NCBI RefSeq assembly: GCF_057098645.1
Contig: NZ_CM169472.1
Length of the DNA: 64,000 bases
Strand: one strand, 5' to 3'
Shown: positions 56,174-56,206 of the stretch, in pieces
How the letters are laid out: each line of letters starts with the position of its first letter
How positions within the stretch are numbered: position 1 is the first letter of the stretch
The notes under the pieces: model-generated
Seen by the model: the letters and a program-made list of their open reading frames with translations, nothing else
Told to the model about the DNA's origin: nothing
The model's database searches: none
Position numbers and translations under genes: made by a program

Positions 56174-56206
56174 CATTCCCCTCAGCCCGAAGGGTAGAGG
56201 GGAATG
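56174..56206. repeat. Inverted-repeat hairpin between cdaR and yaeH (possible bidirectional terminator)
   Basis: CATTCCCCTCagcccgaagggtaGAGGGGAATG, a 10-bp perfect stem between convergent genes; no adjacent T-run. Confidence 0.45.

Follow-up and report, generated by a model that had tools for sequence, protein, structure and literature searches.

Stable stem-loops that lack a U-run have been described at the ends of Rho-dependent transcripts, where they protect the RNA from PNPase and RNase II and where rut sites lie just downstream (Dar and Sorek 2018, NAR, PMC6061677). A second group of palindromic elements is known under three names, BoxC, PIT elements and TMECO, which were equated by Holder et al. 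(2015, NAR, PMC4666352) and of which 23 copies are found in MG1655. The same paper describes copies that have degenerated and, for TMECO loci, a “palindrome effect”: these loci are unusually variable and collapse into simple stem-loops. Moreover, it refers to earlier work in which PIT/BoxC elements were without terminator activity. That report agrees with the view, taken below, that the hairpin studied here is not a terminator, and gives no positive evidence of a function.

We analyzed a 64,000-nt stretch of Escherichia coli DNA (contig NZ_CM169472.1 of assembly GCF_057098645.1, here referred to as “the window”) and focused on a hairpin between the convergent genes cdaR and yaeH. With a probability of roughly 70%, we consider this hairpin to be the 3'-terminal protective stem-loop that remains on yaeH mRNA after Rho termination, and to be derived from a BoxC/PIT/TMECO repeat. 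The class of stem-loops, the repeat family and the 3' end have all been published before; the novelty lies in connecting them with one another and in the allelic dimorphism of the site. This reading accounts for the sharp and stable 3' end of an abundant E. coli mRNA that has no recognisable terminator, and it leaves current understanding in place.

The hairpin in the cdaR-yaeH spacer

The gene order in this part of the window is degP, cdaR (+), yaeH (−), yaeI and dapD. The genes cdaR and yaeH converge, with ends at 56142 and 56231, respectively, and leave a spacer of 88 nt. The features concerned are as follows.

54985–56142, plus strand: cdaR coding sequence, convergent with yaeH
56174–56206, minus strand: main hairpin, in which a 10-bp stem (CATTCCCCTC/GAGGGGAATG) encloses an internal loop and a smaller CCC/GGG stem; apparently a degenerate BoxC/TMECO remnant
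56207–56229, minus strand: first, weaker hairpin of the yaeH 3' UTR, CCCGAACUGACGGUUAACUCGGG, abutting the yaeH stop codon
56231–56617, minus strand: coding sequence of yaeH (a DUF3461 protein), with the transcript ending at the hairpin of 56174–56206

The main hairpin reads CATTCCCCTC AGCCCGAAGGGTA GAGGGGAATG and is a perfect 10-bp inverted repeat whose arms are 13 nt apart. The preliminary description had claimed a perfect 10-bp stem with a 13-nt loop between convergent genes and the lack of the U-run of an intrinsic terminator, and both points are borne out by sequence and folding. In fact, the 13-nt loop is not open, as it holds an inner CCC/GGG stem of 4 bp on the plus strand, and on the yaeH-sense strand this inner stem closes around cUUCGg. 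The predicted minimum free energy of the RNA is −22.4 kcal/mol on the plus strand and −21.8 kcal/mol on the minus strand, with z-scores of −5.56 and −5.25, respectively, and none of 200 dinucleotide shuffles folded equally well. No T-run lies 3' of the hairpin on either strand: the plus strand reads on as CCCGAGTT and the minus strand as AGCCAGCG, and the yaeH-strand sequence 3' of the stem, AGCCAGCGCC, is not U-rich. Likewise, the terminator scan did not call the hairpin, its sole call there being the weaker neighbour at 56207–56229.

We further looked at how rare such a structure is. The motif CCCCTC-N3-25-GAGGGG occurs once in the window, where 0.04 occurrences are expected. Perfect stems of at least 10 bp with loops of 3–15 nt gave 19 nested hits, spread over 11 loci of the window, vs 1.03 hits per shuffle, an enrichment of approximately ten-fold. 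The hairpin is thus non-random and yet a common type of intergenic feature. An Rfam scan of 55000–57500 with E values up to 10 returned chance matches only, including a plant miRNA model on the hairpin itself (E = 7.8), and the RefSeq annotation of MG1655 holds no feature in either of the spacers examined. No further copy of the hairpin or spacer was found in the window, nor by blastn (E up to 10) in 5,426 E. coli genomes. As it is single-copy in every genome that carries it, the hairpin is not a currently dispersed repeat.

The 3' end of yaeH mRNA and Rho termination

Published transcript data were compared with the hairpin. The position of the 3' end and the downstream sensitivity to bicyclomycin are taken from these data, and the stability of the hairpin, the excess of C over G and the upkeep of pairing were computed here. 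Three features on the yaeH strand are needed below.

56171, minus strand: dominant steady-state 3' end of yaeH mRNA (Adams et al. 2021, Suppl. file 1)
56105, minus strand: peak of the Rho termination region (MG1655 183583; Adams et al. 2021, Suppl. file 2)
56074–56173, minus strand: C-rich, G-poor stretch of the yaeH transcript directly past the hairpin, on the strand opposite to the cdaR 3' end; candidate rut region

By Term-seq, the dominant 3' end lies at MG1655 183649 (−) in three of three growth conditions (Adams et al. 2021, eLife, PMC7815308, Suppl. file 1), and its scores, two of which are shown (70,972 and 131,285), are comparable to those of the adjoining dapD intrinsic terminator. 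We checked this position on the MG1655 sequence (L086); it corresponds to window position 56171, at a distance of 3 nt from the stem, and is the C of ...GAGGGGAAUGAGC-3'. In the table of Adams et al. the end is labelled “antisense cdaR”, apparently because it is 60 nt away from the yaeH stop and thus past the 50-nt limit that the paper sets for “primary” ends. The present assignment corrects this database label. The second dataset, TRS (Nat Commun 2023, PMC10687069, Suppl. Data 2–4), gives yaeH a “Primary” terminus at 183645, with a range of 183641–183653 and a 3' UTR of 65 nt, and prints an identical hairpin fold in its entry. This terminus is window position 56167 (range 56163–56175), so in both datasets, which are from E. 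coli K-12, the main yaeH 3' end on the minus strand falls 3–7 nt past the stem. The TERMITe supplements hold no entry for the cdaR-yaeH locus.

Beyond this end, a bicyclomycin-sensitive Rho region is reported at 183583 (−), 66 nt further on, with a Rho score of 5.05 and p = 1.9e-7 (PMC7815308). The reads upstream and downstream of it number 56 and 13 in untreated cells vs 99 and 116 with bicyclomycin. The Rho score is based on 800-nt windows and low read counts, and it may include antisense-cdaR transcripts other than yaeH read-through. The base composition is of the same tendency: past the hairpin, the C/G ratio of the yaeH-sense RNA is 3.0 over nucleotides 1–50 and 2.14 over nucleotides 51–100, vs approximately 1.0 for the equivalent stretch on the plus strand.

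The preliminary description had proposed a Rho-dependent termination or RNA-stability element, with 3'-end mapping of both genes as the check. The proposal gains support from the ends at 183649 and 183645 and from the bicyclomycin-sensitive region at 183583. As for the mapping, the yaeH ends coincide with the hairpin in the published Term-seq and TRS data, whereas a search of the two datasets (Adams and TRS) gave no 3' end for cdaR. The yaeH side alone is therefore documented.

We propose the following course of events. RNA polymerase would pass the yaeH stop codon and the two hairpins of the 3' UTR and enter the antisense strand of cdaR. There the untranslated, C-rich and G-poor RNA past the hairpin would load Rho, and termination would take place diffusely within the next 60–150 nt or so. 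The 3'-5' exonucleases (PNPase, RNase II) would then trim the RNA back until the GC-rich 10-bp stem halts them, and the outcome would be a precise and stable end 3–7 nt after the stem. A stable stem-loop without U-run, a sharp 3' end, a rut-like sequence downstream and the protection described by Dar and Sorek together point to a protective structure rather than the terminator itself.

The hairpin resembles the stem-loops of Dar and Sorek in that it is stable and U-less, has the 3' end directly after it, is followed by C-rich sequence and shows bicyclomycin-sensitive read-through beyond. It thus has four of the five features that define their class and fits it with that qualification. Unlike their examples, it goes back to a BoxC repeat and not to a REP element or a unique sequence, and we infer the dependence on exonucleases here, that is, the trimming and any benefit to mRNA half-life.

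Another possible explanation is that the hairpin acts as an intrinsic terminator that does without a U-tract and may be bidirectional, serving yaeH and perhaps cdaR too. It shares with canonical intrinsic terminators the GC-rich stem-loop at a gene end; its stem is very stable, and equally so on both strands, and the 3' end is only 3–7 nt away. The position between convergent genes would also suit such a role, and bidirectional terminators are commonly reported at such places. However, a canonical terminator is expected to have a U-tract of approximately 7–8 nt after the stem, which is absent here on both strands, and read-through at this site depends on Rho. Bicyclomycin lifts the downstream signal approximately 5-fold, which implies that polymerase moves past the hairpin until Rho stops it. 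The reported lack of terminator activity in PIT/BoxC elements and the lack of a cdaR 3' end in the two datasets searched also speak against it, and we consider termination by the hairpin itself quite unlikely. In the classification of the element, we rejected intrinsic terminator and REP element alike, for want of a U-tract and a REP motif, respectively.

Two alleles and the probable descent from BoxC repeats

In the collection of 5,426 complete E. coli genomes, 3,565 contain the 88-nt spacer (allele A, including K-12, BL21, C, O157, O145 and O104). An unrelated spacer of 52 nt is found in about 1,780 genomes, or about one third of those matching (allele B, including 042, 81009 and others). 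On the yaeH strand, allele B has a REP-like hairpin, GGCCGGGTAAAGTCTCACCCGGCT, followed by a T-run, GTAATTTTAT, and is terminator-like. The REP-like GCCGGGTAAGGCGAAGCCGCCACCCGGC found in spacers of Citrobacter can be aligned with it, as can the spacers of E. albertii and of a divergent “E. coli”; as judged from these alignments, allele B is probably the older state. Orthologues of allele A are present in E. whittamii, Escherichia sp. E1V33 and Escherichia sp. MOD1-EC7003. That the alternative allele has a hairpin here too, though a different one, suggests that what counts at this site is a 3' hairpin as such. Nature has thus exchanged one gene end for another between alleles, a hairpin of BoxC origin without U-run and with Rho vs a REP-like hairpin with a T-run, and the pair of alleles may be used to compare both modes of termination in a near-identical context.

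Within allele A, 2,519 of 3,564 genomes share exactly this 33-nt hairpin. A further 1,015 differ at one loop base, where G in place of T at window position 56195 represents the ancestral CCCCTCTCCCC state. About 99% of the 3,564 genomes have an intact stem, and stem-breaking variants (e.g. B7A) are rare. Since the diversity of E. coli is low, such conservation among its strains supports selection only weakly. We also compared nine variants of the hairpin, in which 90% of the cells are paired vs approximately 50% when the partners are slid. Two-sided changes were found at three pairs (C-G/U-A at two positions and U-A/G-C at one), and cUUCGg on the yaeH-sense strand is invariant. As the variants are only nine and of related sequence, the pairing data are supportive and not decisive; the shuffle control for covariation can be exceeded by relatedness alone.

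These data bear on the question of whether the hairpin is under selection at all. It may be a neutral and decaying BoxC relic, at which exonucleases merely stall and whose perfection arose via quasi-palindrome template switching. Descent from a dispersed repeat without demonstrated function would agree with this, as would the reported variability and “palindrome effect” of TMECO loci and the absence of the hairpin from one third of the matching genomes. However, the strains without it have another hairpin there, consistent with a need for a 3' structure, the two-sided changes keep the pairing at three pairs, and the loop is invariant. We find neutrality rather unlikely on this evidence. It disputes selection and not the mechanism, and the hairpin would define the yaeH 3' end regardless. 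A single quasi-palindrome template switch was ruled out as the source of the arm changes, because the two arms each differ (CAGTC to CATTC in one, GAACA to GAATG in the other), so that two events are the minimum.

As with the REP/BIME elements that stabilise mRNA 3' ends, the hairpin is an intergenic palindromic repeat between convergent genes and would block exonucleases. At the same site, the alternative E. coli allele and Citrobacter spacers have REP-like GCCGGGTAA...CACCCGGC hairpins. The hairpin itself, unlike REP/BIME, has no REP consensus palindrome (of the GCCGGATG...CATCCGGC type), no Rfam family and no BLAST relationship. Across Enterobacteriaceae, the yaeH-cdaR spacer (L006–L085, about 1885–2090, downstream of yaeH) ranges from 43 to 207 nt and contains REP-like palindromes, BoxC-like modules or GC hairpins with T-runs. 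One or two BoxC-like modules are present in the spacers of Enterobacter, Pseudocitrobacter and Lelliottia. In some genera, namely the Klebsiella oxytoca group, Cedecea, Yokenella and Franconibacter, cdaR is not adjacent to yaeH. Three records typed as plasmids carry cdaR-yaeH and are probably mis-assigned replicons or chromosome-derived segments.

The cdaR-yaeH locus is missing from the 23 copies of Table 1 in Holder et al. (PMC4666352). An intact member of the family is present elsewhere in the window.

37198–37270, no strand assigned: intact inverted BoxC/TMECO pair between hrpB and mrcB (TMECO 1 and 2 in Table 1 of Holder et al. 2015), equal to the CCCTC/GAGGG repeat at 37193–37283

Compared with K-12, this pair has a T-to-G change in one block (ccggggGgagggc) and has lost approximately 12 nt from its right-hand module, a type of slippage also seen in the cdaR-yaeH hairpin; the copy at 37249–37270 likewise decays in 6-nt steps.

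To look for a match to the 34–37-nt consensus of the family, an nhmmer profile was built from the 23 published TMECO copies, with the following results.

Escherichia sp. MOD1-EC7003 (L017): E = 3.2e-6
E. whittamii (L010): E = 3.5e-5
Divergent E. coli allele, RMDEC465 (L092): E = 0.005
Escherichia sp. E1V33 (L011): E = 0.029
Hairpin of the window: E = 5.1, not significant

Since the hairpin of the window itself gave E = 5.1, its BoxC origin rests on the homology of the whole spacer with those of other Escherichia species. This comparison supports membership by descent, and not by present sequence. To that extent the suggested membership of the CCCTC/GAGGG family holds, as the repeat at 37193–37283 is TMECO 1 and 2 and the orthologues of MOD1-EC7003 and E. 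whittamii match the TMECO profile.

The hairpin is like BoxC/PIT/TMECO elements (PMC4666352) in being intergenic, with a CCCTCNCCCC-loop-GGGGAGAGGG core and a decay in 6-nt steps, and the flanks GTC...AAC/GAC are common to it and the intact TMECOs. In two of the three orthologues from Escherichia other than E. coli, the core reads CCCCTCTCCCCTTCGGG(G/A)AGAGGGTGAGGGG. By the three-block triplex definition (consecutive G/C blocks of pyrimidine, purine and purine, with stems of 6–15 nt, which can fold back twice into an intrastrand triplex) the E. coli copy is not a member, as it keeps only two complementary arms. Unlike the described elements, it is without loop 2 and one purine block, is single-copy and has an outer stem extended to 10 bp by substitutions. 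It is 12 nt, or two 6-nt steps, shorter than the full TMECO form GGGGAGAGGGTTAGGGTGAGGGG, with the 100-nt orthologues as the intermediate state. Stepwise losses of 6 nt, starting from GGGGAGAGGG-TTA-GGGTGAGGGG, would fit this series and would have removed the third block. After that loss, a plain Watson-Crick hairpin would have been kept, in which the outer arm pairs with the former block 3 and the stem is lengthened to 10 bp. Compared with E1V33, three substitutions in E. coli extend the stem from 7 to 10 bp.

An action at the DNA level was also considered, either as a cruciform or triplex-prone promoter of rearrangement or as the site of a dimeric protein on the 10-bp inverted repeat. Formation of intrastrand triplexes by BoxC/TMECO motifs is known in vitro, these motifs have been linked to variable loci, and the spacer is dimorphic in E. 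coli and hypervariable across Enterobacteriaceae. However, the third block required for a triplex is gone in E. coli, the spacer contains no promoter, and a hairpin in single copy makes no regulon-like motif. Moreover, in vivo footprinting by Holder et al. showed no triplex (PMC4666352). We regard a role at this level as highly improbable.

In the Term-seq data of Adams et al., dominant 3' ends lie 3–11 nt after other BoxC or BoxC-like hairpins; they concern several copies and were not counted against controls. In MG1655 these ends are at 164636 (+), 624567 (−), 632098 (+), 847200 (−), 3781065 (+), which is the primary end of lldD, 3959467 (−) and 4231270 (−). The end at 164636 (+) falls a few nucleotides after the hairpin of the hrpB-mrcB TMECO pair (window 37198–37270). 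To our knowledge, no function has been assigned to the BoxC/PIT/TMECO repeats since the 1990s, and an instability driven by DNA triplexes is the most favoured idea. The cdaR-yaeH case hints at a role at the RNA level, and the ends listed above suggest a general one at RNA 3' ends. That the repeats act mainly at this level, REP-like, as exonuclease-blocking 3'-end hairpins of Rho-terminated transcripts, is a tentative idea and one that we rather doubt. If it were true, the cdaR-yaeH hairpin would be an informative case, in which the third block of the triplex has decayed and the Watson-Crick hairpin has been kept, compensated and lengthened.

Adjacent and similar hairpins

On the plus strand, the first hairpin of the yaeH 3' UTR, at 56207–56229, has ATTATTTACG after it and thereby becomes a weak site of terminator type for cdaR. 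The layout with two hairpins is retained in most variants of allele A, and the first helix is missing from the predicted minimum free energy fold in 2014C-3307, B7A and MOD1-EC7003. This hairpin varies by strain, and its commonest variant is weaker (GCCGA...TCGGA). The O157-type allele has two changes by which the hairpin becomes a near-perfect palindrome of 10 bp, CCCGAATTGA/TTAATTCGGG. A small ORF at 56075–56197 (40 aa, TTG start), which overlaps the cdaR stop codon and the main hairpin, was dismissed as mechanical.

Two further hairpins of the window are of a similar kind. One lies at the 3' end of degP (54839–54866) and has a perfect 10-bp stem, AACCCCTTCC-N8-GGAAGGGGTT, with a weak U-run only (CUCCUUAC). 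The degP 3' end at 182347 (+), upstream of cdaR, has an intrinsic-terminator score of 5.38 plus a significant Rho score of 4.57 (Adams et al. 2021, PMC7815308). The other, at 17063–17087, is a terminator-like hairpin, CCTCTCCTC-TGGATTTGG-GGGAGAGGAG, followed by TTTT, and gave a weak match to the TMECO profile (E = 4.6).
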